Below are positions 3,421-61,427 of a stretch of DNA of 64,000 bases, piece after piece. Each line of letters opens with the position of its first letter. Position 1 is the first letter of the stretch. Made by a program: the position numbers and the translations under genes. Origin of the DNA: Leucoraja erinacea (taxonomy: Eukaryota). The notes below the pieces were generated by a model. The model worked only from the letters and a program-made list of their open reading frames with translations. It was not told where the DNA came from and did not search any database. The DNA lies in NCBI RefSeq assembly GCF_028641065.1, contig NC_073395.1, positions 6,944,001 through 7,008,000 on the forward strand, read 5' to 3'.

Positions 3421-3528
3421 GTTTAAGAAGGAACTGCAGATGCTGGAAAATCGAAGGTACACAAAAATGCTGGAGAAACTCAGCGGGTGCAGCTGCACCC
3501 GCTGAGTTTCTCCAGCATTTTTGTGTAC
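3421..3528. mobile_element. Penelope-derived short insertion containing a perfect 72-bp palindrome; 13-bp TSD
   Basis: TTTGGATATACAT at 3408-3420 and 3529-3541; palindrome 3457-3528. Confidence 0.85.
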
Positions 3529-3822
3529 TTTGGATATACATATGTATATGGAGTGATACAGATCATGTGCAGATTAGTTTAATGGCATCACGTTCAGCAC
3601 GGACATTGTGGGCCGAAGGGCCAGTCCCTGTGCTGTCCTGCTGCTTGATACCCAAAAATATAATGGCCCAGTTTCACTTTTCTCTGCTTGTACTGCTGAT
3701 GGACAAGGGTCTGCTGCCAAAACAGTTCATTCCCACATAGACCTTTCTGTCCTCAGTCTCCGCCATTGTCAGAGTGAGGCTAAACGCAAATTGGAGGAAC
3801 AGACGTAATTTAGCGCGATTAT

Positions 3823-4626
3823 AGAGGTACAGTGGTGCAGCGGTAGAGTTGCTGCTTTACAACACCAGAGAGCCGGGTTTGATCCGACTACAGAGGCTGT
3901 CTGCATGGAGTTTGTACAGTCCCCACTTGACATGCCAGGGGTTGTCTCCGGGTGCTCCGGTTTCTTGTACATTGTAACCTTGTACATTGTCCCTAGTGTG
4001 TAGGATAGTGTTAGTGTGCGTGGATCGCTGGTCAGCGCGGACTTTGTGGGCCGTAGACCCAGTCTCTATGTTTAAATCTGAGGAAGGACATTATTGCCAT
4101 AGAGGGAGTGCAGAGAAGGTTCACCAGACTGATTCCTGGGATGTCAGGACTGTCTTATGAAGAAAGACTGGATAGACTTGGTTTATACTCTCTAGAATTT
4201 AGGAGATTGAGAGGGGATCTTATAGAAACTTACAAAATTCTTAAGGGGTTGGACAGGCTAGATGCAGGAAGATTGCTCCCGATGTTGGGGAAGTCCAGGA
4301 CAAGGAGTCACAGCTTAAGGATAAGGGGGAAATCCTTTAAAACCGAGATGAGAAGAACTTTTTTCACACAGAGAGTGGTGAATCTCTGGAACTCTCTGCC
4401 GCAGAGGGTAGTTGAGGCCAGTTGATTGGCTATATTTAAGAGGGAGTTAGATGTGGCCCTTGTGGCTAAGGGGATCAGAGGGTATGGAGAGAAGGCAGGT
4501 ACGGGATACTGAGTTGGATGATCAGCCATGATGATATTGAATGGCGGTGCAGGCTCGAAGGGCCGAATGGCCTACTCCTGCACCTAATTTCTATGTTTCT
4601 ATGCTGTATCTCTAAACTAAACTAAA
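3823..4626 (+). mobile_element. HE1/V-SINE-like SINE interrupted by a CR1 insertion (4071-4603)
   Basis: Head CAGTGGTGCAGCGGTAGAGTTGCTG, body to 4070; tail CTGTATCTCTAAACTAAACTAAA resumes at 4604. Confidence 0.85.
4071..4603 (+). mobile_element. CR1/HER1-type LINE 3' fragment, (TTTCTATG)n family
   Basis: ORF 4108..4425 (QRRFTRLIPGMSGLSYEERL...WNSLP), 3' hairpin GGCCGAATGGCC, tail TTTCTATGTTTCTATG. Confidence 0.93.
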
Positions 4627-5537
4627 TTAAAATTTGAAGATGGTTACTTACCAAGATTAATTGTTACTCAAAGCATTGGACTAAATCTTGTACGTTGCAT
4701 CTCCTCACAAGAGGCAGCTAGGAAGCAAAAGATGTGAAGGCAAATAGTTTGGGTTATTTCAGCACAAGTAGGCCATCGTTCTACCAGAGGTATCTAAACT
4801 AGTTTATCATGGGTTCTATTTAATCTCTTGTGAGAATGTAATGCACATGTTCTGATCTCAAACTAATAATGTAAAGACATATTGAAGATGTGCACACACA
4901 TCATCTGCAGACTGCTGTGTATCACAGACAAGTCTCAACAGAAGAGGAAATGCTGTCTCGTGGAATTTTTATTCCTGCACTGTGATTATCCTTTTATAAT
5001 CTCCCTTTTTTTTTTTTTAAGTGAAGTGCTTCCCCACCCTAACAAGATTCATTATTGCGCCGTTCACTTCAGCAGAGTCGTTGATGTAAATTGGAATACC
5101 CAGACGTGGGGGAGAAAAGGGGAAATATTTACAGAATTTTTTTTTTTTTAATGAAACGAGCCTGTGATTTGTGGTGGTAATGATGTTGAAACTGTCAGCA
5201 TTTTCTCTCATTAATCTGTGAATCTGCCTTCAACATCTGGCATCACCAAGACACAGTGAAACGTGGAAACCCAGAAGCCTGCTCCACAGGGTGTTCTGTG
5301 GGAATCTTTGCAAAGGCAATTGGCGCAAAGTCACTCATTTGACATGAACTTGAATGTTCTACGCAGAGTTGGGGTCGTAAAAGCTATTGGAAACATTGCA
5401 CCGTGTTGAATTTGGTTTAACTGCGACGTTAATGGTATATTAGTCAAGAGTGTTTTATAGTCATATGTCCCAGATAGAACAATTACATTCTTACTTGCAG
5501 CAGCACAACAGAATATGTACATATAGTACACTGTAAA

Positions 5538-5904: not shown

Positions 5905-6531
5905 TATGTCTGAAGAAGACTCGACCCGAAACATCACCTATTCCTTCTCCCCAGAGATGCTGTCTGTCCCGCTGAGTTACTCCAGCATTGTGTGTCTATC
6001 TTTGGTGTAAACCAGCATCTGCAGTTCTTTTCTACACTTTTTATATCTACACATATGGAGAATATACACACATATATTAAGATGCAACTACCACTGAATA
6101 GCTTCCCCAGCACTCTCTATCTAATTTGATATCTGGAGACTAATTGCAACATCATAATTAGCTGAAAGGGCCCTGTTCTTCAAAATATTATTATTCGGTT
6201 TGTCATTTGGTCTTTGCACTTCAATTTTGCGTGTGTGTCTATGAAGATTTAATAGAAACCAAAGGGTGGTGGGTGCATGGAATGTGCAGCTGGAGGAGTC
6301 AAAATTGTAAATTGTCCTTAGTGTGGAGTGACAGGAATTGCTGGCAAGCGAGAACTCGATGGTCCAAAGAGCCTGTTTCCGTGTTATATCTCCAAACTCT
6401 AAGGATGTTGCCAGGGGTTGAGGTACCTGAACAGCTGGGAGGCTAGGACTTTATATCTTGGAGTTCAGGAGGCTGAGGGCTGATCTTGTACAGTTGTACA
6501 AAATCATGAGGGGAGTAGCTGGGACGCGAGT

Positions 6532-6559
6532 CTGAAGAAGGGTCCTGACCCGAAACGTC
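6532..6559 (+). ncRNA. Minimal hammerhead-ribozyme-like core (Penelope type)
   Basis: CTGAAGA-A-GGGTC-CT-GACCC-GAAA-CGTC: conserved CUGANGA and GAAA boxes, helix II, ACGT self-complementary helix III, GUC cleavage triplet. Helix I is only ~2 bp (GT/AC). Confidence 0.6.
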
Positions 6560-8057
6560 ACCTATCCATGTTCTCCAGCGTTGATGCCTGATCCACTGGT
6601 TTACTCCAGCACTGTGTGTCCTTTGGTCATCATGAGGAAGTGGTCATCTGTGCCATGGCGTCTTGCAACTACTTTTCAAACACCAAGTTACAGGTTTTCA
6701 GTCAAATGTTCTGAGTGGGCAGAGCTTAGTTCCTTCCTAAGAGTGTCTACCCTAATTAGGCTTAATGTAATTATCGTGAAGCAGAATTGCAGCTATGTGT
6801 TTTCCAGCTGCTTGTACTGAGCCATAATTAAAACCTGGAAAGGAAGTTCTGTTATGATTGAATTACTGGGAAGCAAATCTTGCAAAGCGGCCTTTGGTAA
6901 TTTGCTATTCAGATGCAATCAGATCACAAACCATCTGTTTCATTAATTTGAGATTTTGTTTCTTCAGCCCATTTGCTATTCTTAAAATTGCATCAGATCA
7001 TGTCATAAGATCATAAGTGATAGGAGTAGGAATGGGAGGGGGCTTGGTCAAAAGGTCATAACTGATAGTAGCATTAGGCCATTTGGCCCATCGTCTACTC
7101 AGCCATTCAATATTGGCTGATCTATCTCCATTCTCCTGCCTTCCTCCCATAACCCCCAACACCTGCACAAATCAAGAATCTATCTGCCTCTGCCTTAAAT
7201 ATATCCACTGACTTGGCCTCCACAGCCTCTTGTGGCAATTAATTCCAGATTCACCGCCCTCTCGTCTCTTAATTGATGAACAATTTGTTTAGTGTATTTT
7301 GTGGCAAAAAGCTCTGTAATACCAATGAAAATTATCACACTTCCCCCCCCAAAAGAAATTCCAACTAGAAGGCATATTTAGAAAGATATATGTAATAAAT
7401 ATGACACAATGTGACAGAATTAATAATGTATCTTTAAGAAAATAAAATGGCCAGGAGCAAGTCACATTTGTTTAATTTGCATATATCAATAAATTATGCA
7501 TGAAACGAAATGGAATTTGTAATCTTAATCCAAAAGACGTCAGGGAAAATAAATTGTTTTAACAGTCGCTGCCTGTTTCATACACATGTGTCTCTTGTAA
7601 TTTGACAAATATCTTTTGCTCTTCTACCTTGTAAACTGAAAAGTACATTTTGTTTCTGATTAATATTGATGTAACTGAGATCAAATAATCAGAATGATCT
7701 ACAATGCTTCTTAACTGATTAAATTCTGGTTTGATCCCCTTTCAAGTAGGGATATCTACAAATACATTTGCTGATTTGCAATTATAATCTCTTTTATAAA
7801 GAAAATATTTTATCTTTGGATATTTTTTTTAGCCCAACAAAGGTGGAAACTGGCTACAAAATACTTGAATGTAAAGATGCTGGTAGAAATCAGAAATAAG
7901 ATCTGCTACTTCTTGCGTAGGGCTTGCACAGCCTAAAGTTGTAGGACCACTTGGCGGACCACGTGAAAGGTTGCAATCTTCCCCCCCAGAAATAAGATCA
8001 AAGTTCTGCAAATCTTTAGCAGTTCAGACAACATCGGTGGAGAACGCAAAATAACAT

Positions 8058-11208: not shown

Positions 11209-14200
11209 TACGTAATGAGAGCCCACAACATTAAAAAAACAAAAAAACACCTGTACTCAGGTTGAGGACAGAATATTAATATTCTTTGTTCAAATATAGC
11301 TTCAAAGAATTCAAAAACCATTATTGCCAGTCAAATTTTATTTTGCGGTGGGGCACTGATTTAAAAAAAAAATCAGAAACATTAAAAGTGCATTTACCAA
11401 AAAACTATAATCAGCTTGTTTATAAATGATTCATTTAAGATACGGCACTTACACCATAAATCAATTAAAACAAAATTAAATTACCCCTCAATCTATGCAT
11501 TTCCTTACATTAAACATGCATTGGATAGAAAAAACTTAAAAAAAAAAAAGTTCACATGCTTTACAACAAAGGCATTGCGACAAGGAGCAACAAGATTGTT
11601 TTAAAAATGACCGAAACATCAATAATTTCAAAACTAAGACAATTCCGTTTTATTAAGCAATACAGCCTAGATTACACAAAGGTTTACAATTTGTAGAAAG
11701 GCAACTTTATACAAACAAAAGAACTCAAGCCAATTGTGCCTAAAAGCCATTTATTGTGTAATCCAGAAACATAATAAAATATTCATCAATTCTGTATGCA
11801 TTTATATAAATGATGATGCAGAAAACAAATAAGGTATCTTTGCAAATTGAGGCATTAATTGCAAAATTAGAATAAAAACAACTTCATGTTCTGTAATATT
11901 GAGATGCTTTCAATAGTGACACATGACCAAAAGTGCCTCCAGCAGGCTTGCACTAGATAAACCCCATCAATTTCTCAGTTATACAGTTCACTTAAACATC
12001 CTTATCACACATTTTCTCCCTATTAAATAACCCTGTTGTATACCTGCCTCTTTTTCCATTCATTACCATGTCCCAAATTGAGCAGCAGAAATCTTCTATT
12101 CAACACAGATTGGAATGTTAACAAGGTAGCAAGTCCCCAAAATATACATTTTAGAGACCGGCATCCAGACTTTGCTTTGCAAATAGGCTAATAAGGTTTC
12201 TTTGAATTATGGATGCTTTCAATGAACTGACAAGTGTGTATTTACACTGGGAACAGATATGTAAGAGTAACCAAATCAGAATAAGCTGTGAAGGAAAGAA
12301 AGAAAATAAAATATGAATCCATTCCTGCATGCAGCTAGAGCCTTTGAACACTCTCCAGCCTTTGAAGCTGAACGCAAAGCAACCATGGTAAAAATAAACT
12401 GGGAACACATTGTACATTTAAGAGCATCAACGTCGATTCATCAGAAAGATTAATAAGAGTCAATAGAATCAAAGACTCAAAACGCTGGAGTTACTCCAGT
12501 AAGTGGGTTAGGCAGCATCTCTGCAGAAACACGGGCCTTTTGGGTCACATCTTTGAAAAATCGCAATTCCGACACTCGACCATGAATCCTGACCCAAAAC
12601 GTTACCGATCCAGGTTCTCCAGAGGTGCTGCCTGACCCTGCTGAGTTACTCCAGCACTTTGTGCCTTTCTTTTGTGAGCCAGCACCTGCACCTCCTTGTA
12701 ATAATTATTAATATTATCAAATGTATTTCGAGTTAACCATATAACCATATAACAATTACAGCACGGAAACAGGCCATCTCGGCCCTACAAGTCCATGCCG
12801 AACAAATTTTTTTTTTTTTTTGGTAAGTTGTGGTAAGAAATAGTTTTAGTTGACAGCTCTTGCAAATTTAAAACATGTCAGGGCCACATCTTTCAGCTAG
12901 TCGGGCACCGAATGAGAAGATCCATCAACGCGCCAGATTTTTTGCGCAATACTAAACGAACCACGTTTTTGAATTGTCCAGATACCCATTAATAGAACGA
13001 AAAGCAGTGGATGCCTTAACCCAGTTGACATGTCAGTCACTCAGAAGTTTGTCACGTAGAGTTTTCTTTATAAGAGTGATGACATTGACTACATTGGGCA
13101 GGAAGGATCCACTACAGTACCATGACTGAAAAAGTCAATACATTCACAGATTAAAAAAAAAAAAATTTTTTTTTAAATTCGTGCAAAACCAGCAGTAAAT
13201 TAACTTCAGAAAAAAAAAATTAAGTCAAGATAATTCAAATCATTATTTTCATATATTCTATCAAATACACCATTTGGATATAAAGACAGGAAATGCTGGA
13301 AATAGCCAGCATACAGCAACTATGGAATGAAAAAAAAAAAATGACCATACCCATACAGGTTGATCTTTCAATGCAACTTTGAAAACTTCCCCCTTTACAG
13401 CTTTTTTTGCAGGAATTGTTATATTGAAAGGATGAAACATTTCCGAAGGGTGTTCATACAGATATAAAGACCCGAAATCCCCAGGTGGTCAATGGCACTG
13501 TCATTATAACATTGGGCACCCCATTGAGTTCAGTGGCACAGCACCAACTTCCTGCATTAGGTTCCAGCACCTATGCTGGGAGGTCAGCTTGCTGAACCTA
13601 CAAATGTCTCAATTTTACTTCTCAACCTGTACCTGGTTACTCCTTGCACACCTCAGCCACTCCATTTACTTTAACAAGTAAAATACTTTCTAGAAAGATG
13701 GTCACATTACAGATTTTTAAAAATCAGTTATTTGTTTTGTTTTTTAAGTTCAATGATTTGTAAATTATTAAGTTTGATATCACTCAAGCTTTATAGATAT
13801 ATTTAGAAATTCAGTTTTGACAACCACCAAGGCAGTCCTTGGCTTAACTGGCCTCCATAGCTGTGGAGGACCTCAATCAGAGCGCAACTTCATGGACCAT
13901 TTACTGGAAACATCCTTGAGAAGGAAGAGAGAAATTATTTAAGAGGGATTAACAAAAGATCAGATGATATTTGGCAGAGGTCTCTCCCAAAGATTGATAA
14001 TTGATTCCCAAGAGGGATGATTCATAACCTGTATCGATCATAGAAACAATGGCATATCTGGTTGAGAATATCAAAGCAAGGTGAATCTAAGTGGGATGAG
14101 CTTGTCTTGTTTTGTTTTCTGTTGACTGGGAGATCCACAGGCATCAGATATGGGGAGGTTTAACTCGTACGGCAGAGTGCAACTTTTAAAACATATCTGT

Positions 14201-14265
14201 GATTGTGAAGTGTGCACTGGCAGCTCATTGTTCAGTTAGCCCAGGCTGAACTGTCTCATGGACAG

Positions 14266-14481
14266 ACAAATGCTGAAGTAACATAGTGGGTCAGGCAGTA
14301 TCTCTGGAAAACGTGGACAGGTGATTATATTGGGTCAGGGTCCTTCCTCAGAGTCTGAAGGAGCCCCAACCGGAATCATCACCAATCCATGTTCTCCAGA
14401 GATGCTACCTGACCCACTGAGTTATTCCTGCACTTTGTGTCTTTTTGTTTTTGCATTAACCAGCATCTGCAGTTACTAATT
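14266..14481. mobile_element. Penelope-derived head-to-head palindromic insertion; 12-bp TSD
   Basis: TCTCATGGACAG at 14254-14265 and 14482-14493; two inverted arms centred on ...CTCAGAGTCTGAAG. Confidence 0.8.
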
Positions 14482-16835
14482 TCTCATGGACAGGCCTGAC
14501 TTACAAGCTCCAGTACTCTAGTTGTACAATTTTAAAACCTATTAATATCTAACCTTTCTAGAACTGTGGCAAGGTCATTAACACAATCCATTTCTCCAGA
14601 TTCTGTTGAACCTATTGCGCAAATCTAACATTTTCTGTTTTAATTTCAGACTTCTAGCAATCACATTATTGATTCTTTGAACTAATGTCTTCAGGCTCAT
14701 TAAGACGCAAACATTGTCCGAAGTAATTCTGTTGCAAAAATCACCCTGGCTGCATTTGTAAATTGTGAAAATTGCCCACTTCAAGGCTGCACACAAGGAT
14801 ATATTACGTTTCTGCAAAACCTTAACATGAAAAGATGTTTAAACAATAATCCAGTGTCAAAATAAATCTTTTACAAACACAACACAAAAATTCTCAATTT
14901 GGTTCAAAATGGTTTATGTTGGAAGATAATTCACTACAACTTGCATTTTGTTTTGCACAGTTATTCACATAAGTAGTCTTGGCAATTCAGAGCAAACTTG
15001 GGAAATTGTACATCACAGGTTACAAGCAGTTTTACTTTAAGCATTCAATTAAGATTGTCATCAGGGAAAGACGGCAAGGTCCTTTATTTAGAAGGCGTCA
15101 GAAAGCACTGTACGTTTCTTCTTAGGCAACACGATATTTTATAAAACCAGTTCACATGCGATAACAAACTTGTAGGGTGTTAACAAACTGGTAAACTGAA
15201 GAAATGGTCACAAATTAGCATAGCAATATTTTTAAAAGCCCCGTGTCTGTAAGATAAACATGTCGGAAATACCATACGAAAAACCAAGCCAGGAATCTCC
15301 AAGATTCTGCAAATGAGTGGAGAATATTGCACAAATAACAGGTAACCTTTCCCAGGCCCGTATAACTTAAAACAAATTTAAAATTTTCCATTGGTAAACC
15401 ACACTTGGGAGAATTATTTTAAAAATAACAGTATGGCAGGATTGCAGTTAATAGTAGCTACCAAAATGAGTGGTTTCAACAAGAGCCACATTTGAGATTC
15501 ATGTAAATGATGCCATAGATGGTTTGTTTATACAGATTCTACAGCTCTGCTGGTGATAACTTCACACACCTCTCTTCAGATAATTGTCAACATATCCATC
15601 AATACACTTCGTCCTCGGGCTTACACAGCTTCTGCTTAAATTGGACTATGCTACTCAATTATTTCTCACTTTGGAGAATCCCACTTGGTACCAACTTTCC
15701 TAGTTAATGATTTCTAGTTGTAGACTCATTAGTTGGTAACATGTTCTCTACACGTGCCCAATACATTACATCACTACAGCGAGGTATCCTCCGTTCCTAC
15801 CTCTCACCTTCTGACCCATTCATATTAAGTTTGTTCACACAACTTTGATATTGTCCATGTGCATTTTTTTGCCACATCTCCAGTCTCCCATAACATGGAT
15901 TTCCACTAGCCAATTTGGCCTGTGGGAACTCTTGGCATAGCTCGACAAATGACTCTTCAGACCCAGATAGAAAGGGATGACAGAGGACCAAATAATGTCA
16001 AATGAGCATTGCACATGGGTTAATATTATTGGGTGTCCCGACTAGTACTCACGCTTCAAATATGTAACGTTTACCTGGTTTATTATCTAATCAATAAAAG
16101 ATTTATAAAAAGAGTTTGTCAGCTTTCTAATTATTTTGAAGATCACTAAAACATTTAAAATACTTCGTTTAAAAATCACACTATGACCACGACAGAGCTC
16201 AAAAGCTTGATTTGTCCTCGGAATGCTTTAAAGTGGTGCCTATTTTCAGTGTCTTGAAGGATTCCCCGATCAGTACAAGCTATCCAAAGTGCAGCTCAGC
16301 ATTGATATTTAAGATTTAAGAACTAAAGCTGATCGTATCTGTTATATTTGCATGTCCAAACATGATTCAATTTAAATTTTGATAAATCAGCATCTAAAAT
16401 GGTCCCATTTCTCTTCAATAACTGCCCACCACAGAATTTCAAGACCCACTCATTCCAAAACATAGACAGTATGAATCGAAATGCTCTCGAAAAGATCTTC
16501 AAATAAAATAAGATGAGCGTTACAGGGCACAGATTGATGCAAAAATGAAAATCTGTTAATGATGTCAAGTTGGCTAATTTTATATATTGCATTTAATTGG
16601 ATCAGGTAACTCAACTGTGGAGATTGGTTTATGAAATCCAGTTATCTTCCAGAGTGTTTCTTTAATAGAAAAGCATGGCATATAAACATTGACTGGCTGA
16701 AAAGGACAAATTTAGCTTACCACGCCAATTTGAGATACATTCATACATGATCTGACAATTTCCTTCTTGAAGCGAATTAAATTTATCAGATAATGTATAA
16801 GAATCAAGCCCAACAAATCAACAGATTCAATGGTT

Positions 16836-20401: not shown

Positions 20402-21434
20402 CTGCAAAAAAACCCAACAAAATTTAAGCTTAATCGCACAATCCTACAAAATCTCCTCAACCTGAGTTTGTCTTATCCGTGGCCATTTAAGACTGAAATT
20501 CCATATTTACCGATATGCAAGAACCTTTCCTCATGTAAGAGTTGTCTTTTAATCTCTTTTGAGTCATATCATGTTTCAGGATATATGTATTGCTAGTAAG
20601 ATCTGTATTCATTCTGACATCCCAGGTCTCACCAAGGTATGGTGGGCCCATTTTTTTTTTTTGAACTGTTGGTGGTGTCTCATAACGACGAATAGGTCAA
20701 ATCAAAGAATGCTTCTGTGCTCAAAAGATGGGCTTGGGATCCAGAAGAATGCGTTTTAAAAATGAATAGTAAATTCAAAAGTGCTCTTTTGGCTTCAAAG
20801 CATTTAGCATGGTAAAAAACATCGTACAAATGGATGATTTTTTAACTTCACAATGTGAAGGAAAAAATGGCAAAATAGAAGAAATGCGAATATTTTTTTT
20901 TTAAATTGAAAATTGAGCTGGAATGCCGACGTGATGAATCATTCTTCCACCACTACCCCTTGCCCCATATCCCCCAGACAATTTTGGATCCCATGTGGCT
21001 TCACCAGCTTACATGCAGAGAAGGAAATTGGACTGCAATGCAAATGCTGAAATTATGGAGCACAAGCTCCATTAAGCATATTTTATTTTGTAATTAAGTT
21101 AGTTTAGCCAAAGGAACATTAATTGAGAACATTTGACAAAACATATCCAAGGACCCAGTAAGAGACCACCGGAATATTTTGGAGCTTCACTGTTAAAGGT
21201 CTGAATTACCTATTCTAAACCCGAAAGACCGATCACAACCCAATTAGTGATTGAGGAAATTTCAGTGTTTCCAACTAAGTGTAAAAATATCCCACGTGAA
21301 GAGAAAATGAACACTTCAAAAACACAATCCTCTTTATTGAAGAATTTTGGAGAGAACCTGAAGACAACAGATGTACTGCACGTGGATTAGCAGAACTGAT
21401 AAAATTCCAATACAGATTATCACAGAATATCAAC

Positions 21435-21643
21435 ACAAAATGCTGGAGTAACTCAGCGGGACAGGCAGCATCTCTGCAGAGAAGAAATGGGTGACGTTTC
21501 GAGTTGAGACCCTTCTTCAGACTTCTTCGGTCGGAAGGTCTCGACCCGAAACGCCACCAGTTCCTTCTCTCCAGAGAATCTGCTTGTCCCGCTGAGATTT
21601 TGTGTCTTTCTTCGGTTTAAACCAGCACCTGCACTTCCTACAC
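21435..21643. mobile_element. Penelope-derived palindromic insertion in a NUP50 intron; 16-bp TSD (1 mismatch)
   Basis: ATCACAGAA(T/G)ATCAAC at 21419-21434 and 21644-21659; hammerhead-like core on the minus strand at 21493-21520. Confidence 0.82.
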
Positions 21644-27523: not shown

Positions 27524-27629
27524 TACGACTGGTAGCACATAATCCATTGGACAGCAATTCTTTAGGACTTTATATTCAAATTTAATAAAAAAGATTTATT
27601 TAATTAATGCAATTATTCAGTACCCATAC

Positions 27630-30848: not shown

Positions 30849-30969
30849 GAAGGGCCTCGATCCAAAACGTCACCTATTCCTTCTCACCAGAGATGCTGCC
30901 TGTCCCGCTAAGTTACTCCAGTATTTTGTGTCTATTTAAACCAGCATATGCAGTACCTTCCTACACATT
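30849..30969 (+). mobile_element. Penelope-derived single-arm insertion within an old CR1 tail; 12-bp TSD
   Basis: CTGTCGGCCCAA at 30837-30848 and 30970-30981. Confidence 0.8.
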
Positions 30970-37141: not shown

Positions 37142-37772
37142 AGGAGTCTCCTATATATCGGCAAGACCAAGCACAGACTGGGCGATTATTTCGCTGAACA
37201 TCTTTGCTCAGTCCACCTTGGCCTACGCAATTTCCCTGTTGCCAAACACTTTAACTTCCCTTCCCATATTGACCTTTCTGTCTTGGGCCTCCTCCACTGT
37301 CTGAGTGAGGCCAAATTCAAATTGGAGGAACAGAACATCATATTTTGCTTGGGCAGCTTACAACCCAACAGTATGAATATTAATTTCTAATTTCAAGTAA
37401 CCCTTGCATTCCCTCTCCCTCCGTCCCTCCCTCAGCCGAGTCGTCCTACTGGTTTCACTGCCATCCTGCTTAGTTTCACTGTTAGTATCCACTCGTCATC
37501 ACCTTCTCCACAGCTAACAATAGACCATTGTGGGTTCCACCTTTTCTTGATCATCTTTGCTGGCTTTGATTTGTTCTTTTCATACCTTTCATTCATTTTT
37601 TTGTACCTTTCCATACCTCTAGTTTCCCTCTCCCCTGACCCTCAGTCTGAAGAAGGGTCTTGATCCAAACGTCACCTATTCCTTTTCTCCAAAGATGCTG
37701 CCTGACCCGCTGAGTTACTCCAGCATTTTGTGTCTATCTTCGGTATAAACCAGCAACCAGTTCCTTCCTACA
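37142..37772 (+). mobile_element. Penelope-like retroelement 3' remnant (GIY-YIG endonuclease end plus pLTR-like tail with degenerate hammerhead motif)
   Basis: LYIGKTKHRLGDYFAEHL, PVAKHFN, KLEEQNIIFCLGSLQPNSMNI peptides; tail CAGTCTGAAGAAGGGTCTTGATCCAAACGTCACC at ~37643. Confidence 0.85.
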
Positions 37773-38164
37773 CAGTGGTGATAGATCTCCTGTCCTTGTA
37801 CTCATTTGCATCCTTCAGAGAAATCAACTACTGGGTCAAGCAGATTTTAGTTTCTCTCTGTCGTACCTTATGATAATATAAATGGCTACAACTTATCACA
37901 TATTTTAAAAATTAGAGCATCTGGTTGCTCATTAACACATCAAAATTAACAATCCAAATTAGAATCAAGAATGTTTTATTGTCATATGTCCCGAAACAGA
38001 ACTATATTAAAAAAAAACCCAATAATAGTGGAAAGACAAAAACAATGCCCCAGGATCTATGTAGTTTCGAGCTTATTTTGAGGATGTTCACCCCGTCATC
38101 CTGTTCCTTTCCCTTCCTCTTTACGCCCATCTCTGACCCTTCCCTTGACCGAGCCCCAATTCCA

Positions 38165-40515: not shown

Positions 40516-40602
40516 AAAATGTATTTGTTTTTTCTGAAGGAAGACAAAAATGCTGACGAAACTCATCGGTTGAGGCAGCATCTATGGAGCGAAGGAATAG
40601 GG

Positions 40603-40630
40603 GACGTTTCGGGTCGAGACCCTTCTTCAG
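40603..40630 (-). ncRNA. Minimal hammerhead-ribozyme-like core, sense to the NUP50 pre-mRNA (intron 1), in element ~40541-40630
   Basis: Minus strand CTGAAGAAGGGTCTCGACCCGAAACGTC; core intact, but flanks give no convincing helix I. Confidence 0.55.
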
Positions 40631-43600
40631 ATATATTCTTATGCCATTTTCGGAAACTTGCCATCAATATGCTATCCTTTTAATATTTTTTATTGATACC
40701 ATGTTAGTCATGAACCCAATAAAGTGCTCATCAACTTTTGAAGGGATTTGAAATTTGACCCCCTTTGTCACATTATTGTGTGCAGTATTGTAAAAATACA
40801 CATTGCAATGCAACCAATTCCTTTGTACTAGACTGCAATCACTGGAATTCAATACATTAAAATCTAATTTAAGTAACAAATTGCTACATAAGAAAAAATA
40901 ATTAATAACATAATATCTATGCTGAACATGGTTGAGGGAAAGGCAGTGGCCAGGATATTACAAGAATCTACTGTGTTTCTGAGCAGTTCAGGGATCTCTT
41001 ATTTAGTTAAAAGACTATTTTGCAAGAGAACCCGAAAGATAATGTAATCAAAGGGCCAAATAAAGCAGGATCTTCCCTATGCCCGACACTTACTTGGTTG
41101 TATGTGAAGCAGTGATCAAACTGATTCATCATATCCAGATGTCTTGCAAAGGCAGGGCAAGTAGGTCCAGAGGGGCACTACCAATGTCTTATTTTCATCA
41201 AAGCAAGGGATGGAGCACTGTCTCCAGTCACAGACAGGAACGCAAAAGTGTTTTATAATTCGACACATTTAAAGACCAATATTACTTTAAATAATTGAAT
41301 CTTTACAATTTTTAAAGATTTAAAATTGAAAACATTAAAACAAACTAAGATAAAATTATTCAATTTTTGAATTATTTACCCGTTTCCTCCCATTTTCCAG
41401 AATACAAACTGCAATTAAGATTGAATGGGGTCTCCAATACTATGCTAGATCTCACTGAACCTAGGATCACAGAAACAAATTTTACAGTAGTATGCTGGGA
41501 ATCCTAAGACAGGGCTATGCAGATGAACTTTACAGAGTCCAGTGACAGGGTGGACTGACATGTATTTCAGAGGGGCTCAACATTGACGACAGACATCACA
41601 ATCATTCCCAATAATTAAAGCGAGATATAAACTCAGTTTGAAAATCAAGTCCCTAACTGGGCTATAATATTATGATGTTAAGACAAGTGAGGGAAAAGGA
41701 GGATTTTATCCCTCAAGCGGAATATCCTGCTAATTACAGGACAACAGGTGATTGTTAAAACATGTTTTTTAAATGGAATACCATCACAAAAGAGAAGGGC
41801 AATACTTTAATGAAGTGATATTTGACGAGGCATAGGTCTTAAACCAAGAGAAGATTTCCATCTTTACAATGTTGGCTGGACTTTAATTCTGGTACTGAAC
41901 ATAAAATAGCCGTGCCGAGCCCACTGTGCAAACCATTCTTTCCCATAAATGTTATTAACTGGAGAATATATGCTACCTATTAGGTCATAATAGCTTTGGA
42001 AATATAAAGAACAATTATTCACTCTATTAAATCCCATAGGGAGCAAGATTGCTAATAATGACATTAAGCCTTTATTAGAAGTGAATTTGCCATTTTTCAC
42101 AAGAGGACATGTTTTTTTTTAAATCAGTGTTTTCTTAAGACCTGTGCCATGAACATGGAGGAGAGAATCTGAAGGATAAAGGAAAAGTAATTTTACCTTG
42201 GTAATTCCTTCATTAAGATGGGCCCCAAAGACAGTTCTGTTCTCCAGATGCATAAAAGCTAACTCATTTTTGAAAAAAATTACAAAACACCCACTTCTTC
42301 ACTAATATTTATTTGAGTTGATTAACGCTTCTGAAAAAGAGTTCTAACTCCATTGTTTTTGATTCCCAAGCTTCCGTTCTCAAACCGCATACACAAGGAG
42401 CTCAGATTCTATTCATGGTTGGTGTTTCGGAGTAGCTTGATGGATGATCGGAATACACTAATCAAAGAAGACTCATTTAGTGGAATCAATCATCGGAAAA
42501 CAGTTCCAGAAACAGTTTTATGGCGACTTAACTTTGCACATTCATGTTGAAAAAATTATTGATTCAATCTTTTGAAATTGATTATTTTCTTCATTCTTGA
42601 ACTTTTCTACAATAATCCATGTTATCATACTTTACTATATTTTCTACCGCATGCCACTGCATGTATTATGTAAACATAATTTACTACTAAAAGTAAAAAA
42701 TATGATGGGAACAAGAATTTATTCTGAAATAATTTATCAGAGAATCACCGATTGTCAGTTAATCACACAAGCTTTGCTTGCATAACCTAACATTATCTGG
42801 TAACTTCAACTTGTTACCATTGTATAATGAGTCCATGATGTCTTGGTATTGGTATTAGTATAGGTTGTTATTGTTACATGTACAGAGGTACAGCAGAAAA
42901 ACTTGTTTTGTGTGTTATCCGAAGAAAGGAAAAAGGAGGATGAGGTTGGTTAATGCGGACCGAGCTGAGGTGTTCGGCGAAACGATCGCCAAGCCTATGC
43001 CTTGGGAGAGAAGGCTTGACATCATGCTACCAAACTCTTTCTCCTTCCTGTACTCTGTAACTCCTTGTTTGAGATACAGCCCAGTACGATGTTAAGAACT
43101 ACAGCAAAAAGCTGAGAAAGCAGCCTTGCGGGCTGCTGCGTTGAGAATGATTGTCGAGGATGTTTATGCCTATCCTTACTGTAGGCAGTCTATGAGCCAG
43201 AAAGTAAAAGGACCCAGTTGCAGTGCTGAGTGCCGAGTCCTAGTTTCAGATGAATTTGGTTGGAATTATGGTATTGAAGGTAGTCAATATATAATCACTG
43301 ACTAAAAGAATCATTGTCCGAAGGGTCCCGACCCGAAATATCCCCTTATCCACATTCTCCAGAGATGCTGCCTGACCCGCTGAATTACTCCAGCACTTTG
43401 TCATTATTATAAATCATTGTAAAATCATATTCATTATAGTCAATGAATATAAGCTATTATTATCATTCATCTAACTATTTGTGGTTTCGTTTTTGATTAA
43501 CTTCAGTGCCCATAATTTCACATTTTCAAAGAAAATAATTTTACAGATAAAATAATGAAAAACATACAATGTTTCATTCATATATACAAAACATACATGT

Positions 43601-44849
43601 TCAGCAAATGCAATGAATACAAAACATCAGCACGTTAATGTTACAATAAGTATTTATCTGATAACTTCAACAACAAAATGCCAATACTGTTGATACACTT
43701 TTCTGCATACAGAGCATTTTCTCTCCCTACAGAGTAACACACAAAAGACATGTAATAACAGAAGAGCCCACATTAAAGATAAAACGAGCACTGATCAGAC
43801 TGATACTACAAGTCACATAAGAGCTCCAAACAGCAAGATCATTTTGTCAATTGTGTTAAAAAGAACTTCAGTGACCTTCACAATTCCTGTATCAATTTAT
43901 CAAGGAATCAAACATAACCGAAATTAACAACGACACATATACAATCAATTGAACCGACCTCCAATTCCATGCTTTCCATAATCGAACAATTACATACTCC
44001 CAGTAGGGGTCGCTGGGCAGCGGATAAGGATTGAGATCATACCATTTCCAACCCGATTAATTTTAATTCTTAATGACTCGTAATAAGACATCTTAACTCA
44101 GACCAGCTATCAGAGATCACAAATCAAACCTGCAATCTGCCCCAAGCCTGTGTAATCCAACTAATCTATTAACAAACCACATCAATCGAATCCATTTTTA
44201 AAACACCATTATGAAAAATATCTTGGAAATGTTTTGGATCAATTGAATTATGACATTCAATGTAAACTGGGCAATATATATGCTCAAAACAAATGCACTG
44301 CTGATCGCTTTCATCATTCCTACCCTCTTTAGTTATCTTCAAGAAGGATGCTATTTCCCCAACCCGAAGAAATTTCAACTTCGTCCGTGTAGACAAAAGC
44401 TTGAAAATAAACGTGTTTTTCCAACGATAATTGATCCCTTCCATCGCAGCAAAAGCTCCCAGGAAACGGCGCAGCCAAGCCAAGGCGACCCGCATGTGGG
44501 CAAAGCAGAGCACAACTCTGCGCTCATCCCCGCCAAACAATCACATTGCGGCTCCGAGCCAGCGCCGGCCACAATGACCGGGACCACATCATCAAGTTGG
44601 GTTGACTCATTCACACAAAGTGAACACGTTTTTTGAAAGAAAACAACAAAATGCCCTCACACGGGTCTCCTCGGTGTCCCACAGCCTCGCTATTGCTCTC
44701 CTTTGATTCTTTTCAATCAAATAATAGACTATACATGATTACAATCAAGCCGTCCGATACTGGATAAAGAATACAACATTCAGTGCAGGATAAAGTCCGA
44801 CTAAAGATAGTTTGAAGGTTGCCAATGAGGTAGATGGGTGGTCAGGACA

Positions 44850-45670
44850 GAATCCCTTAGTCCTTATCCCATCAGACGTCCCCTCCGTTGCAACATAGAC
44901 ACAGTTCCCATAACCCTCACCCTTCACCCCATTAGCAGTCGCATACAGCACATAATCATCCGACATTTTCGCCAACTCCAAAATGATCCCACCACTAGCC
45001 ACATCTTCTCATCTCCACCCCTTTCAGCTGAGACTGTTTCCTCCGCAACTCTCTGGTTAACTCATCACTTCCCACCCAAACCACCCCCTCCCCAGGTACT
45101 CTCCCCCCCACCCCACCAGCAACCTCAGGAGATGCAACACCTGTCCTTATACCTACTCCTTCCACTCGGTCCAGGGAGCCCGACAGTCCTTTCAGGTGGG
45201 TCAGGTTCACTTGCACCTCCTCCAACCTCACCTACTGTAGCTGCTGTTCCAGATGTGGATTCCTTTACATTGGCGAAACCAAACGTAGACTGGGCGATCG
45301 TTTATCTGAACATCTCCTCAGTCCGCCTGGGCATACCTGATCTCCCGGTTGCCAAACACTTTAACCCTCCCATTCCCATACTGACCTTTCTGTCCTGGGC
45401 CTTCTCTACTGTCATTGTGAAGCCAAACGAAGAAACAGCACCTCATATTTCACCAACAATGAAACATTCTACATTTCCTTGACTATCGTCTGCTTTGATT
45501 TGTCGTTCTCACACCTTGACCTTCCATATCTCTAGCCTCCCTCTCCCCCGATTATCACAGACTGAAGAAGGGTCTCCCATTAGAGACGTCTCCCATTAAA
45601 CATCACCCATTCCTTCTCTCCAGAGATGCTGCCTGACCCGCTGAGTTACGCCAGCATGCTTTGTGTCTAT
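44850..45670 (+). mobile_element. Penelope-like retroelement remnant
   Basis: VPITLTLHP, IIIRHFRQLQNDPTTSHIF, CSRCG-like/YIGETKRRLGDR and LPVAKHFN peptides in shifting frames; same pLTR-like tail at ~45560. Confidence 0.85.
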
Positions 45671-45718
45671 CCACATTATCAAATTGGGTTGACTCACACA
45701 CAACATGACCACACACTT

Positions 45719-45951
45719 TGCTGGTTTAAACCGAAAGTAGACACAAAATGCTGGAGTAACTCAGTGGGTACAGGCAGAATTTCTGGAGAGAAGGAATGGG
45801 TGACGTTTCAGGTCGAGATTACTTCCTTAGTCGTCTGAAGAAGGGCCTAACATCACCCATTCCTTCTCGCCAGAGATGCTGCCTGTCCCACTGAGTCACT
45901 CCAGCATTTTGTGTCTACTTTCGGTTTAAACCAGCAACTGTAGTTCCTTCC
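45719..45951. mobile_element. Penelope-derived palindromic insertion
   Basis: Arms TGCTGGTTTAAACCGAAAGTAGACACAAAATGCTGGAG... and its complement ending GTTTAAACCAGCA. Confidence 0.8.
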
Positions 45952-46299
45952 TGAACAATATGCCTACGCTTTGCTGCAACGATATCTTTAGTCAGAGAGG
46001 GTGGTGAACCTGCGGAATTCATTGCCACAGGAGCCTGTGGAGGCCAAGTCAGTGGCTATTTTTTTTAAGGCGGAGATAGATAGATTCTTGATTAGTGCGG
46101 GTGCCAGGGGAGAAGGTAAGGAGAATGGTGTTGGGAGGGAGAGATAGAGCGGCCATGATGGGCCGAATGGACTAATTCTGCTCCTACAACTTATGAACGA
46201 TTGTCCAGCTGCTCCGGCTCCGTCTGCTTTGTAATAAAATGTCACAGAGGGGGCAATAAAAATGCTGCTGTGGTGGGGATGGGGTGGTGGAAAATCTGG

Positions 46300-48375: not shown

Positions 48376-49845
48376 ACTCCGTGCAGATGACACCCGTAGT
48401 CGGGATCGAACCCGGGTCTCCAGCGCTGCATTTGCTGTAAGGCAGCAACTCTACCGCTGTGCCACCATGAAACATCCTCAACACATTCACTCTATCCAGT
48501 CCAATGAAAACTATTATCAAATTTATCTCAGTCAAAACCAGGTGGTAAGTGACATTTTAAAGTATGCAAATCTCCTGCTTATCAATGGAACATGTATCAG
48601 ACAAAGATGACTGGTATCATCTGCAGGTCTGATGGTCTCATCTGCACCTTTTGCACCTAACACTCATCTGCACCTTTTCCAGAAAAGTCATTCATATTAA
48701 ATTCATTTTCTGAAGAGATTTTGGTTAACGTTCTGAGATGAAGCATTATTCCATCAAATATTAAATCTGATGATGACTGGCTGTGGATAACAAAGGTAGA
48801 GTACAAGAATAGGCCTTTCGGCCCACATCATGCTAAATCATTATTAATCTCGTCTGCCTTCACACAATCCAAAAATAGACACAAAATGCTGTAGTAACTC
48901 AGTGGGACAGGCAGCATCTCTGGGGAGGAGGGATGGGTGACGTTTCAGGTCGAGACCTTCCTTCATTCTCGACCCGAAACGTCACCTATTCCTTCTCTCC
49001 AGAGATGCAGCTTGCCCCGCTGATTTACTCCAACATTTTATATATCTTCGGTGTAAACCAGTATCTGCAGTTCCTTCCCTCCCATGATCCATACACTTCC
49101 ATTCCCTGCACATCCGCTTGCCCATCTAAAAGCCGCTGTTGTATCTGCATTCACCACGACCACCACATTCCAGGCTAGTCACTAAAAAGAAAACTTGCTG
49201 CACACATCTCCTTTAAACTTTGCCTCTTGCATCTTAAAGCTCTCTAGTCTTTGACATTTCCACCCTGGGGAAAAGGTTCGGGCTGTCTTCTGATCAGCAC
49301 GTTATCTAACTGTATTCTACCTAATGGGAACAAATATCAACAAAGCTTTTTTGTCATCACAATTTGTGCCACAGAGTGCGACACACTTAATGGAAGATGG
49401 ATATTTTACTGGTTTATTTAACTCCAAAAATATTCAACTTGTTCGTGCACTACATTTGGTAACCCATCCAACATCCAGTCCAAGAAACAAGGTCAATTGT
49501 TTCACATCTAATCTTCTACATCTAATTTCCGACAACTACAACCCAATGGTAATCAAAAACACAACCACTTTACTTGCGCTGAATGAGTTCCCCCTCAAAG
49601 CCTCCAGACCTGCTGAGTTTTCAACATTTTTGGCTATTAGTTTTTAATTGCAAAGCAAATGACATAGATAGGGCAGAACAACTATTACTGAAGAGCATAA
49701 TCTCTTGACTGTGGCAATGGTCAGTAGAATAACGTATCAAAGGTCAAGCACATGGTTATTAAAGGTACACTTTACCCTCATATGCAACATTGTTTGGCTA
49801 CTTTAAACACTGGCAATTATTATCACTCGGGTTCTGATTCTACCA

Positions 49846-50056
49846 AAGGTAGACACAAAATGCTGGAATAACTGAGCAGGACAGGCGGCATCTCTGGATA
49901 GAAGGAATGGATGACGTTTTGGATCGAGACCATCAGACCTGAAGAAGGGTCTCAACCCAAAACACCACCCATTCCTTCTATCCAGAGATGCTGCCTGTCC
50001 CGCTGACCCTCCAGCATCTTCGGTGTAAACCAGCATCTGCAGTTCCTTCCAACACA
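49846..50056. mobile_element. Penelope-derived palindromic insertion; 14-bp TSD (similar copies at 12474-12695 and 48878-49085)
   Basis: TTCTGATTCTACCA at 49832-49845 and 50057-50070. Confidence 0.85.
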
Positions 50057-50555
50057 TTCTGATTCTACCATCGAAACAGTATACCAGCTGGAATGACCCA
50101 TGTTCACAAGACAAATGCTGCTTTCCATCTTTGGTGGCACAACGTTCCAGTTCCAGAGACAAAGTCCAATGCCCACAACGGGGTAGAGATGTTCACATGC
50201 ATACATATCTTTCCTCTGGTGTTGGGTTATATATACCAAAGTTTCAGCTCCAGAAATTCTTGCAATGATTCCAGATTAAAGTGTACTTTTAAGACTTTTA
50301 TTGCATATTCACCTTCAAATCATGACGCTGGCAGAAACTCCTTTGGCTCTGGCCTTACCAGTAATAACAATAAATCTTCTACTTCTTGAGCATCATTGTG
50401 TTTCTGTTCCATGTTCTTCCTCGGACCTCAATGACCGTGTTCACCTTTAGGAATATTTCCAATTGCTCCAGGCATTGCTCAGTCAGTTCATATTTAATTA
50501 ATCCACTGAGAATCGATCAAATTCTGGAAAATGATAACCAGTGCATATCTAGGGT

Positions 50556-58379: not shown

Positions 58380-59166
58380 AAAGTATTTTGTTGGGCCGCA
58401 CTTGGAATACCATGCATTGTTCTGGTTGCCACGCTGCAGGAAGGATGCATTTAACAGTAGAAAGAATGCAGAAGAGATTTACCAGGATGGTGTAGAAAGG
58501 AACTGCACATGCTGATATATCCCGAAGATAGATACAAAGTGCTGGAGTAACTCAGCGGGTCAGGCAGCATCTCTGGAGAAAAAAGATGGGTGATGAATGT
58601 TTCCAGACGGTATCCTTCCATACCATTTGCTCTTGGCCTGAAACGTCACTCATCCTTTTTCTCCAGAGATGCTGCCTAACCTGCTGAAGTTACTCCAGCA
58701 CTTTACCAGGATGAATCCTGGAATGGTGGGTTTTACTTACAAGGAGAGATTTGATAAGCTGGGGTTCTTTTCATTGGAACGTAGGAGGTTGAGGGATGAC
58801 TTTGGTGGTTATAAAATTACTTAAGGCATAGATAAGGTAGATAATTGAGTATTTTTCTTGGGCGGGTAGGCCTAAAACTAGAAGGCATAAGTTTAAGGTG
58901 AGGTCAATTTAAAGGAGTTCTGAGGGTTACGTTTTTCCACATGGGGGGTAGTGGTTATTTGAAGCAAGTTGCCAGAAAAAGTTGCAGTTGCAGTTGCAGA
59001 TACTATTACAGCAATTAAGAGGCATTTGGACAGGTACTTTAATAGGAACCATATAGAGGGATATGGGCCTAATGCAGGCAAATGGGATTAATGTAGATAG
59101 GTATCACGGTTGGCATGGACAAGTTGGGCCAAAGGGCCTGTTTCTGTGCTGTACATCTCTATGATT
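58380..59166 (+). mobile_element. Old CR1 fragment interrupted by a palindromic Penelope-derived insertion (58490-58701)
   Basis: GPHLEY..FWLP, FSLERRRLRDD and CR1 tail GGGCCAAAGGGCCTGTTTCTGTGCTGTA...CTATGATTCTA. Confidence 0.75.
58490..58701. mobile_element. Penelope-derived palindromic insertion; 12-bp TSD
   Basis: TTTACCAGGATG at 58478-58489 and 58702-58713. Confidence 0.82.
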
Positions 59167-60842
59167 CTACCATAGTCAATCACTGTAATTATCACACATC
59201 TACTTTAACTTCATCTGCACAATATGAACCTTTTAAAAATAAATTGATGCTGCTATCTTGTAAATCGAAAATTTAGAGATGAGAAAATTTAGAGATGAAA
59301 ATATCTCAGAATATGTGTTCATCTTTAAATAATCACATTTTAATAATATTGCTTGGTAAACAAAATGTGATCAGATTTTTAGCAACTACACAGATTCAAA
59401 TGTTCTTAATTTTTTTGTGAAAAATCCCAGACAAGCAAGTAATATAGACTCATGGGGAACTTAGTAAAAAGCTAATTCAACTCATTGGTTCCCTTGTGTC
59501 CCGCTGAGTTACAATTCAAATTTTTATTGGCCCATTAGCTGTTGCAGATGGGTCCAAATAATGCACTTGCAACGTAAATACTACCATCCCGGTTGGAGAA
59601 GAAATGTAATTACCAAATGTGTTGAAATTTTACTTTCACTGTTAATCTATATAGATAGACCAGATGGCCATTTTGAGTAATGCAGCAGTCATTTCTGTGT
59701 GATTCTCGCTGAGAGTAAAGCTAATACTAAATGCTGTGTGGTAATGAAGGCTTTTGTAACAATATGGCATTTGAACACTTATTGTAAAGATTATTTTGAC
59801 ATTTTAAATCTTGTTGAAGAGTTACCATGTGCACAGCAAACACTGGAAATTATTCAACTCAGACCTATCCATATTTTTCTTCATATCCATCTTTCTGTAT
59901 TGATTTTGACTTTGATCCTGACCACTCCGCTTCGAGTCTCAAAATTACCAAAGGAGACACGATGATCTGAATTATGTTAATCAGGCACAGCATCTGATCT
60001 CAATTGTGTTCACCAGGCAGAATATCCAGTGAATAAACATATTCTCTTTTTCAATATGCTTCCTGAAATACACAGATCACAAACAAGACTGAAGCAGCTA
60101 TTTAATCAATAGACTGTCATTTATTATCCACAGGCTCCCAGAAAAAAAAGTCAATTTCAGAAAAGGACACACAGTTTAAAGTCTACTTGTGAAATCTTTA
60201 GAATTTCTTTTCATGATATCTTCAAATAATTTGAGAAAGGTAATTCAGCTGAAAACGGAAATATTTATTTCATTTGATAAATGGTGATGATTTGCAAATG
60301 TTTTTGTTTCTTTAAAAATGGACACCTTTTAATTTTTTTGTTTTGTTCGGGTACAAGGGAGTTGGGGGAGGGGTCATCCTAATCGGCAGATGGAAAGTCT
60401 AAAAATTGCTAGAACTGAAGAAATGTTTTTTAGCAGTGCAGCTGACGGAACATTACTAATGCATCTTGGAAAATAGGAACAATGCACATGATCCGGCTCC
60501 ATAACATTGTGAACTTCGGTAAAAATGACAAGTTCAAATCTAATATTTCAGGAGTAAAAAACTATAATGCATTAAAAGCATGCAAAATCAATAAAGAGAT
60601 TTTGGAATATATTAACATATGAAATTTTAAGTTAAGTTATATGCTTGAGCAAAATAATATCAGCAGAAACCCAACAATCAGATTGTGGTATCACAAAGTG
60701 AACTTGCACAATTGTTAATGGCTGTAATCCATTAAAACATGAATGTATGAATTAATAATGGTATAAATTGACTATTTTGATTTAAAAATGACAATCAAAT
60801 GAAAAATTGTACAAGTAGAAAGTTTGCGGAAATTCAATACAT

Positions 60843-61427
60843 ATCCCTTTACCTCCCCTCTTGACTCCATCCAAGGACTCAAACAGTCTTTCCAGGTGAG
60901 ATGGAGGTTCACTTGCACCTCCAACAACCTCATCTACTGTATCCGCTGTTCCAGGATTCAACTGCTCTAAATTGGCGAGACGTAGAGCAGGCTCAGCGAT
61001 CGTTTCGCTGAACACCTCCGCTCAGTCCATCTTAACCTGCCTGATCTCCTGGTGACTCAGCACTTCAACTCCCCCTCCCATTCCCAATCTGACCTTTCTG
61101 TCCTGGGCCTCTTCCATTGTCAGAGTGAGGGCCAGCGCAAATTGGAGGAACAGCACCTCATATTTTGTTTGGGTAGTTTACACCCCTGCGGTATGAACAT
61201 TGCTTTCTCTAACTTCAGACACCCCTTGCTTTCTCTCTCCATCCCCTGCCATTTCCCAGTTCTCCCACTAGTCTTACTACCTCCAACTCCATCCCATCTT
61301 TGTCCTGCCCCCTCAGCTGACATCAGTCTTAAGAAGGGTCTCGACCCGAAACGTCACACATTCCTCTCCAGAGATGCTGCCTGACCCTCTGAGTTCCTCC
61401 AGCACTTTGTGGTTAGCTCAAGATTCT
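60843..61427 (+). mobile_element. Penelope-like retroelement remnant (tail continues at 62541-62570 after the L1)
   Basis: FTCTSNNLIYCIRCSR, IGET, RFAEHLRSV, QHFNSPSHS, RKLEEQHLIFCLGSLHPCGMNI; hammerhead-like motif 61328-61355 with CTTA instead of CTGA. Confidence 0.87.

Follow-up and report, generated by a model that had tools for sequence, protein, structure and literature searches.

Short hammerhead-bearing repeats in the genome of Leucoraja erinacea are very probably the shortest insertions of an autonomous Penelope-like retrotransposon

We analyzed a stretch of 64,000 nucleotides from the skate Leucoraja erinacea (contig NC_073395.1, positions 6,944,001 to 7,008,000; hereafter the window), in which a unit of 135 nt carrying a hammerhead ribozyme motif, here called the arm, recurs singly, in head-to-head pairs and behind remnants of Penelope-like elements (PLEs). 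The solo and head-to-head copies are very probably the shortest insertions of an autonomous Neptune-type PLE whose 5' untranslated region (5'UTR) is this unit. The arm is the 5'UTR, or pseudo-long terminal repeat (pLTR), end of an autonomous 3.9-kb Neptune-type element with a reverse transcriptase (RT) and a GIY-YIG endonuclease (EN). Directly observed were the unit standing as the 5'UTR of a downstream copy, two distinct 3' ends, target duplications, one tail per pair and a pile-up of 5' ends at arm positions 1-8.

The parent element was documented by a young subfamily, in which all 150 scored matches were 98-100% identical across 253 aa of the RT, 148 of them without internal stop. The longest open frame of this subfamily (1193 aa, locus L247) showed YIDD and IYC..YIG motifs. 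Its protein matched RVT_1 (E = 3e-6) and had 1039 homologues, which carry PF00078 and PF01541. A cysteine linker C-x4-C-x2-C precedes the GIY-YIG domain in L247, L209 and L113. A Zn-finger-like linker, CX2-5CxxC, that separates RT from EN defines the Neptune clade (Craig et al., 2021; PMC8557442), and our putative placement comes from this linker motif, not from an RT tree. Long-element walks starting from old remnants first yielded broken copies only. At the 5' ends of young copies, 14 of 20 loci showed the same succession, namely the GIY-YIG end and 3'UTR of an upstream copy, then the arm, 34 nt and the ATG; the repeat unit measured 3,945 nt in L268. In such a partial tandem, the unit thus serves the downstream copy as 5'UTR, and this is what makes the arm a pLTR. 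Also, 40 of the 52 GIY-YIG C-termini in the genome sample described below had an arm within 450 nt downstream. Residues ~210-460 of the L247 frame, which separate the N-terminal domain from the RT, are a long insert rich in Pro and Ala; it is repeated in part and differs among young copies. An open frame across the arm was present in one subfamily and broken by a TGA in another, and was taken as chance.

Arms of the window were counted with a profile of 137 columns built from natural copies, in which columns 1-4 are CAGT, 5-32 the hammerhead core and ~97-135 the tail. The search located 17 loci with 26 arms altogether: 5 arms stand alone, 9 loci are head-to-head pairs and 3 arms follow Penelope remnants (Table 1). 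With the natural copy at 33716-33851 as blastn query, 27 pieces were recovered in the window, against 0-1 per shuffle (10 shuffles). The repeat family announced by the original prediction, which had been made from the letters of the window, is real and all arms lie within a few bases of the places it gave, its count of ~15 copies being too low. The unit does trail three GIY-YIG Penelope remnants, as it had proposed. These remnants, at 37151, 44844 and 60827, correspond in tblastn to the C-terminal end (RT thumb and GIY-YIG) of a long element of this genome (E = 9e-23, 1e-37 and 3e-51); Pfam GIY-YIG by itself stayed under the cut-off on them (E = 0.055, 0.0019 and no match). The inverted dimers, described as often palindromic, are indeed head to head in nine pairs and are not symmetric, a tail of 35-40 nt standing on a single arm in 9/9. 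One of them, placed at 3421 and listed as a hammerhead carrier, proved to lack the hammerhead, both of its arms beginning at arm position 52-53. Target duplications were recognized at 6 of the 17 loci.

Genome-wide figures come from the 40 largest contigs only, on which 120 stretches of 10 kb (1.2 Mb of a 2.19-Gb genome) were chosen at round-number positions. By profile search, this sample holds 612 arms, or 4.6% of its bases, and the reversed sequences none, which scales to 1.12 million arms in the genome (bootstrap 0.97-1.27 million). Within the sample, coverage was 228 for the arm and 2-5 for the RT core. Three raw RNA runs were added on the basis of their species label, and in these the arm coverage was at least 100-fold deeper than that of the start of the open reading frame (ORF). 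In run X24, arm coverage was alike in both directions and 94% of the placed reads continued into unlike sequence; the arms present in RNA are mostly passengers of host transcripts. In the three runs, no pile-up of RNA molecule starts was seen at +1 or at the ribozyme cut site; since such libraries are fragmented and consist mainly of passive copies, this result is evidence neither way.

The 3' ends of the arms were bimodal in the sample, at ~95-105 and ~135. Among 28 young copies, 19 ended near 97-102 and 8 at 129-138. AT content beyond the tail was 63.6%, against 56.0%. Adjacent arms (n = 155) were head to head in 108 cases, in the same direction in 33 (22 + 11) and tail to tail in 14. The 108 head-to-head pairs bore one tail in 79 cases, two in 6 and none in 23, where 52.7, 19.2 and 36.2 were expected (p = 2e-7 for one tail). 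Target duplications, counted from 11 nt upwards with one mismatch allowed, flanked 29 of the 108 pairs and, among 130 solos, 24, versus ~1% in shuffled pairings; overall they ranged between 10 and 19 nt. They adjoin the arm (15 of 99 near and 3 far; null 0.2 and 1.7), and among these 99 no host flank carried between duplication and arm was seen. PLE insertions are described with an inverted 5'-truncated copy at the 5' end and a 30-40 nt tail at one end (PMC8557442). This layout, the duplications and the single tail per pair bear out the idea that the arms were moved by Penelope machinery, just as the continuity of the arm with the RT/GIY-YIG element at the 14 young loci bears out their Penelope origin. 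It appears highly improbable that the short copies are instead solo pLTRs to which longer insertions were reduced by recombination or deletion. Most of them have no detectable duplication, and the same account has been given for duplication-less solo pLTRs of rotifers (Arkhipova et al., 2013; PMC3846280). However, recombination would retain the upstream 3'UTR, whereas solos show background composition up to position 1, and the duplications, where present, abut the arm.

For the head-to-head pairs, we favour two primings over the fold-back of one molecule. The layout of the pairs recurs whatever the length of the copies. In the young pair L210, the two head-to-head arms differ, the tailed one having 95 nt of UTR and the tail-less one 405 nt, and a 14-nt duplication is present; in L247, inverted copies of 1.3 and 3.7 kb are joined. 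Such unequal arms fit two separately primed cDNAs. Among 94 one-tail pairs, the tail-less arm reached further 5' in 29 and the tailed arm in 17. Palindromes are reported at PLE inverted-repeat junctions, and self-priming has been proposed (Arkhipova et al., 2013; PMC3846280). Applied to the skate, fold-back self-priming of one cDNA at quasi-palindromes, with later central deletions, is an unlikely origin of the pairs, although part of the evidence would suit it. Junctions often fall at quasi-palindromes: of the 44 pairs keeping both 5' edges, a set that includes loci fetched by similarity, 15 overlap by the 5-nt quasi-palindrome AGWCT and the remaining 29 show 19 spacings, helix II being another junction site. 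Both arms belong to one class in 63 of 64 classified pairs, with an identity of 0.82 versus 0.76 for unrelated arms, and a short inverted stub was found on 8 of 130 solos where 2.5 were expected. Nevertheless, a single cDNA cannot put the tail on one arm and extra 5' sequence on the other unless this was later deleted (29/94; L210, L247), and the centre base of AGWCT was unbiased in seven one-tail pairs (A 3, T 3, C 1). In the young subfamily, helix II and the GAAA box form a 15-nt near-perfect palindrome (L268, 1391-1405; arm positions 15-29). This palindrome competes with the ribozyme fold and is the junction of several head-to-head pairs (L068, L145).

The 5' end of the short copies is sharp. 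Positions 1-8 are reached by 231 of 396 unpaired arms. A full flank is available for 225 of these; 95 continue into the 3'UTR, and 130 end at positions 1-8 with sequence of background composition upstream. The per-base loss was 4.9% at the edge, compared with 0.9% across positions 9-60 and 1.3% over the 64 nt that follow upstream. Arms stop alike with a tail (42/72) and without one (70/119), which indicates that the edge is a place and not a length. A length-dependent fall-off was ruled out on this ground. Compared with a young reference, 39 of 48 copies reaching position 16 stop by -1. Base composition shows its biggest change at the A of TCAGT, a sequence that we take to be initiator-like. 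Reads of run X24 leave the reference chiefly at positions 2-5 (563, 281, 158 and 151), counts in which a few loci may weigh heavily.

The arm shows every feature of a minimal type I hammerhead, as had been proposed: the CUGANGA / GAAA / UH core, the inserted base, G10.1-C11.1 and a palindromic 15.2-16.2. A search with the Rfam hammerhead families, suggested along with the original prediction, gave no match at E <= 10, and the Rfam scan brought up hairpin look-alikes only. A minimal-hammerhead descriptor found 55 motifs in the 1.2-Mb sample, all within arms, and none in the reversed control, from which ~100,000 are estimated genome-wide. Every core base is kept in 107 of 309 arms, and all helices as well in 38; the core is identical in 12/12 young 5' arms. 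Within the family, helix changes were one-sided only, from U-A to U-G (217 and 50 for pair 10.4-11.4; 152 and 52 for 2.1-1.1). Among 80 related loci on metagenome contigs, the motif stands on the sense strand in 19 (20 motifs, 13 of them at most 1 kb after the ORF), on the antisense strand in 2, and once in the reversed control. The helices of these related motifs are wholly different yet paired, with swaps of C3-G8 to U3-A8. Judged by this retention of pairing among relatives, the motif is a true hammerhead by descent.

Present-day catalysis had been called doubtful, and our data agree. Three of the 26 window arms pass the descriptor (6532 +, 21520 - and 40630 -), with helix I of 2, 2 and 0 bp. 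Helix I reaches at least 4 bp in 2 of 55 motifs here (mode 2) versus 15 of 20 in relatives (median 4). The youngest subfamily is predicted to fold otherwise, with a pairing of 0.01 for helix II and 0.002 for helix I (0.002-0.02 for helix I in the family), whereas helix I of three relatives gave 0.83-0.97. A head-to-head pair has one ribozyme per strand and is predicted to form a single hairpin (-168 kcal/mol, z -22) masking the ribozyme; such pairs are therefore not the tandem dimers that a minimal hammerhead needs. Copy 5' ends do not accumulate at the cut site (positions 31-35 hold 9 starts, the neighbouring stretches 21 and 14), nor do copy 3' ends, and the cut site was thus ruled out as a copy boundary. 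One of 20 long young copies (L284) begins exactly at the predicted cut site, arm position 33. In the anole element PAc, the ribozyme cleaves only with its protein and is dispensable for insertion (Frangieh et al., 2024; PMC11167929). By analogy, the skate ribozyme is likely weak or protein-dependent, and not needed for making the short copies. A pyrimidine tract and CAG before the ribozyme have a precedent as an intron in D. virilis (PMC4209133, PMC2377424). No genomic case of a spliced 3'UTR was found among 40 GIY-YIG-linked arms, no such joint among the 15 RNA joints listed (of 30), and no shared exon ahead of solo arms. As PLEs retain introns in DNA, the missing spliced genomic copies do not refute the intron reading.

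These results do not support the kind of system first imagined, a non-autonomous retrozyme- or SINE (short interspersed nuclear element)-like family with its own masters, excised by the hammerhead and served by Penelope proteins in trans, which we consider quite improbable. Short copies far outnumber ORF-bearing ones (coverage 228 versus 2-5), have a sharp common 5' edge and are plentiful in RNA reads, and cis signals likely lie within the arm, so that arm-only RNAs would be copyable in trans; all this is what such a family would show. However, the unit is the 5'UTR of an autonomous element, and of 172 alleles exceeding 15% in short copies none is below 2% in linked copies (65 linked, a small sample). 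Solos, pairs and body-linked arms have subfamily signatures in common, and pair junctions vary from copy to copy. Same-direction neighbours amount to 33 of 155, mostly broken arms, without tandem arrays; the cut site has no excess of 5' or 3' ends; flanks are not carried along; and neither poly(A) nor a tRNA head was seen in the printed copies. The family had also been said to look like a miniature inverted-repeat transposable element (MITE) without being one, which is the case. Short, palindromic and very numerous copies would suit a MITE of a DNA transposon with the unit as terminal inverted repeat, but the probability of this origin is negligible, since the ends are unequal, the target duplications variable (10-19 nt), the unit runs into the RT/GIY-YIG ORF on both sides, and the Tc1-like element of the window has different repeats.

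We propose that, at a staggered cut, the enzyme of the autonomous element would prime at one of the nicks or at both. Copying would begin inside the unit, at two internal start sites, and halt near the 5' edge of the ribozyme. Where both nicked strands are extended, two short cDNAs would meet head to head and might be joined through quasi-palindromes, either AGWCT at the 5' edge or helix II. The start sites and the double extension are borrowed from PAc, whose RT is described as starting at two internal sites and as extending both nicked strands in vitro (PMC11167929). Several points weigh against this account. The two-nick step leans on the enzyme of another species in vitro. Two copies were read over their whole length (L267, L268), and in both the ATG-to-stop frame is broken. 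At the 11-nt threshold, no duplication was recognizable for 106 of 130 solos and 79 of 108 pairs; age accounts for some of these, and deletion of longer copies may account for others. In old palindromes, central deletions can mimic unequal arms. CCA-signature subfamilies are commoner in short copies (34/130 solos) than in linked ones (5/65), so that some short copies are without a well-sampled parent. Lastly, of 20 young full-length copies none begins at positions 1-8, 14 continue upstream, 5 begin inside the arm and 1 has no arm; 14 of the 15 long young copies reaching position 16 pass the edge. Without an edge pile-up in full-length copies, a plain model in which the RNA starts at the edge is not favoured.

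The stop of the short copies and the passage of the full-length ones would both be compatible with copying that aborts early on meeting the edge of a protein-bound arm, or else with short RNAs that form a second pool. As causes of the 5' pile-up, we rate the early abort as possible, at somewhat less than an even chance, and likewise a separate pool of short RNAs beginning at the initiator-like TCA(+1)GT; fold-back at the quasi-palindrome would be a rather unlikely cause. Tentatively, the short copies may be the record of a discrete "strong-stop" cDNA of 100 or 135 nt, ending at the 5' edge of the hammerhead (modal first base, the A of TCAGT). Single molecules would become solos, opposite-nick twins made by a dimeric enzyme would anneal via AGWCT and become palindromes, and those passing the edge or jumping would become normal copies and tandem pLTRs. 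If true, this would explain the inverted repeats of PLEs, and the ribozyme region would be a boundary for the RT rather than a knife.

Table 1. Arms and Penelope-like copies in the window (positions are those of the window).
Feature	Position	Strand	Remarks
Head-to-head pair	3419..3528	.	Arm positions 52-136 (-) and 53-~100 (+); without hammerhead; 15-nt target duplication, 1 mismatch
Solo arm with tail	5908..6037	+	Arm positions 3-134
Solo arm without tail	6529..6620	+	Recognized by the minimal hammerhead descriptor, with helix I of 2 bp; core spans 6532-6559, after which the cut is predicted
Head-to-head pair, decayed	12471..12699	.	+ arm alone tailed
Head-to-head pair	14259..14483	.	+ arm tailed; 14-nt target duplication
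Head-to-head pair	21411..21643	.	- arm passes hammerhead descriptor (C3 at 21520); + arm tailed
Solo arm with tail	30847..30968	+	13-nt target duplication
Head-to-head pair, best preserved	33612..33851	.	RNA predicted as one long hairpin
Penelope-like copy, 5'-truncated	37151..37775	+	GIY-YIG end 37151-37387, 3'UTR, tailed arm 37644-37775
Solo arm without tail	40529..40631	-	Hammerhead core intact (C3 at 40630), no helix I
Solo arm without tail	43320..43405	+	
Penelope-like copy, 5'-truncated	44844..45674	+	RT thumb, Cys linker, GIY-YIG (44844-45433, frameshifted); arm 45559-45674, 20-nt insertion in ribozyme
Head-to-head pair	45719..45958	.	+ arm tailed; 11-nt target duplication
Head-to-head pair	48868..49080	.	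Junction inside helix II; + arm tailed
Head-to-head pair	49835..50057	.	+ arm tailed; 12-13 nt target duplication
Head-to-head pair	58489..58704	.	- arm tailed; 13-nt target duplication
Penelope-like copy, 5'-truncated	60827..61415	+	Cys linker and GIY-YIG 60827-61216, 3'UTR, tail-less arm 61325-~61415

The window holds other features. A young Tc1-like DNA transposon at 9657-11151 has 153-nt inverted repeats, 99% complementary, and a 296-aa frame with transposase helix-turn-helix and DDE domains. A 223-aa open frame at 27613-28284 (-) has no Pfam match; presumably it resembles an exon of a NUP50-type nucleoporin host gene, in which case many arms would be intronic. The 3' ends of long interspersed nuclear elements (LINEs) were found at 1826-2214, 4112-4603, 25842-27452, 47746-48306 and 56276-57153, some of them mutually 97-100% identical; we take them to be of the CR1/L2 type. 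Six copies of a 48-nt unit form a tandem repeat at 52196-52493, with one frame open. A 209-aa open frame at 61417-62046, which we assume to resemble the C-terminus of an L1/Tx1-type LINE protein, begins exactly where the Penelope-like copy at 60827-61415 ends.

The arms make up 4.6% of the sampled genome as pieces that resemble MITEs or microRNA hairpins (weak Rfam matches) and are easily mis-annotated, and head-to-head pairs inside host transcripts would give long double-stranded RNA. A prior description of the skate arm family was not found in the literature searched, and the family may well be in repeat libraries; in one elasmobranch genome paper (PMC10115646), the word Penelope is absent from the main text. 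The kind of element is already known, and the family is the extreme short end of Penelope-like insertions.

As far as the cited accounts describe them, canonical EN+ PLEs of the Neptune clade (Craig et al., 2021; PMC8557442) have, like the skate element, a single ORF with RT, a CX2-5CxxC linker and, at its C-terminus, a GIY-YIG domain, and also partial-tandem pLTRs, an inverted 5'-truncated copy, a 30-40 nt tail at one end and a hammerhead in the pLTR. Unlike those described there, the skate family counts ~1.1 million arms, most without coding part, and its ORF of ~1,250 aa has a long Pro-rich insert. PAc, a green anole Poseidon element (Frangieh et al., 2024; PMC11167929), is alike in its two internal start sites that define the tail, in its AT-rich targets and in a hammerhead that does not mark RNA ends. 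However, the ORF of PAc starts inside the hammerhead and its start sites lie in the ORF, whereas in the skate the hammerhead and both ends lie in the 5'UTR, the ATG being 34 nt past the tail.

The minimal type I hammerheads described in metazoan PLEs (Cervera and De la Pena, 2014; PMC4209133) have all the core bases of the skate motif, as well as the extra base between 9 and 10.1, G10.1-C11.1 and the palindromic 15.2-16.2, and there too most motifs are single or opposite-strand pairs from truncated PLEs. Helix I has 2 bp in the skate, as in D. virilis Penelope, against the 4-5 bp usual in that report. The ~100,000 descriptor matches estimated in the skate compare with ~9,000 reported there for Xenopus, obtained with a different descriptor. 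Non-LTR retrozymes, in the accounts of PMC7229834 and bioRxiv 10.64898/2026.07.22.740005, are likewise short, non-coding, PLE-derived and very numerous, with a type I hammerhead; a section title in these accounts gives up to 120,000 motifs for the axolotl. They form head-to-tail arrays with canonical cleaving ribozymes and circular RNAs, whereas skate arms are dispersed, single or head to head, and have PLE tails and target duplications. The way in which PLEs produce inverted repeats, and the role of their hammerhead, are described as open questions in the field (PMC8557442, PMC11167929). About a million insertion ends, together with a young subfamily whose RT is 98-100% identical, allow tests of both, and the remaining value of the skate family lies in its sharp 5' edge, which this young subfamily makes testable.

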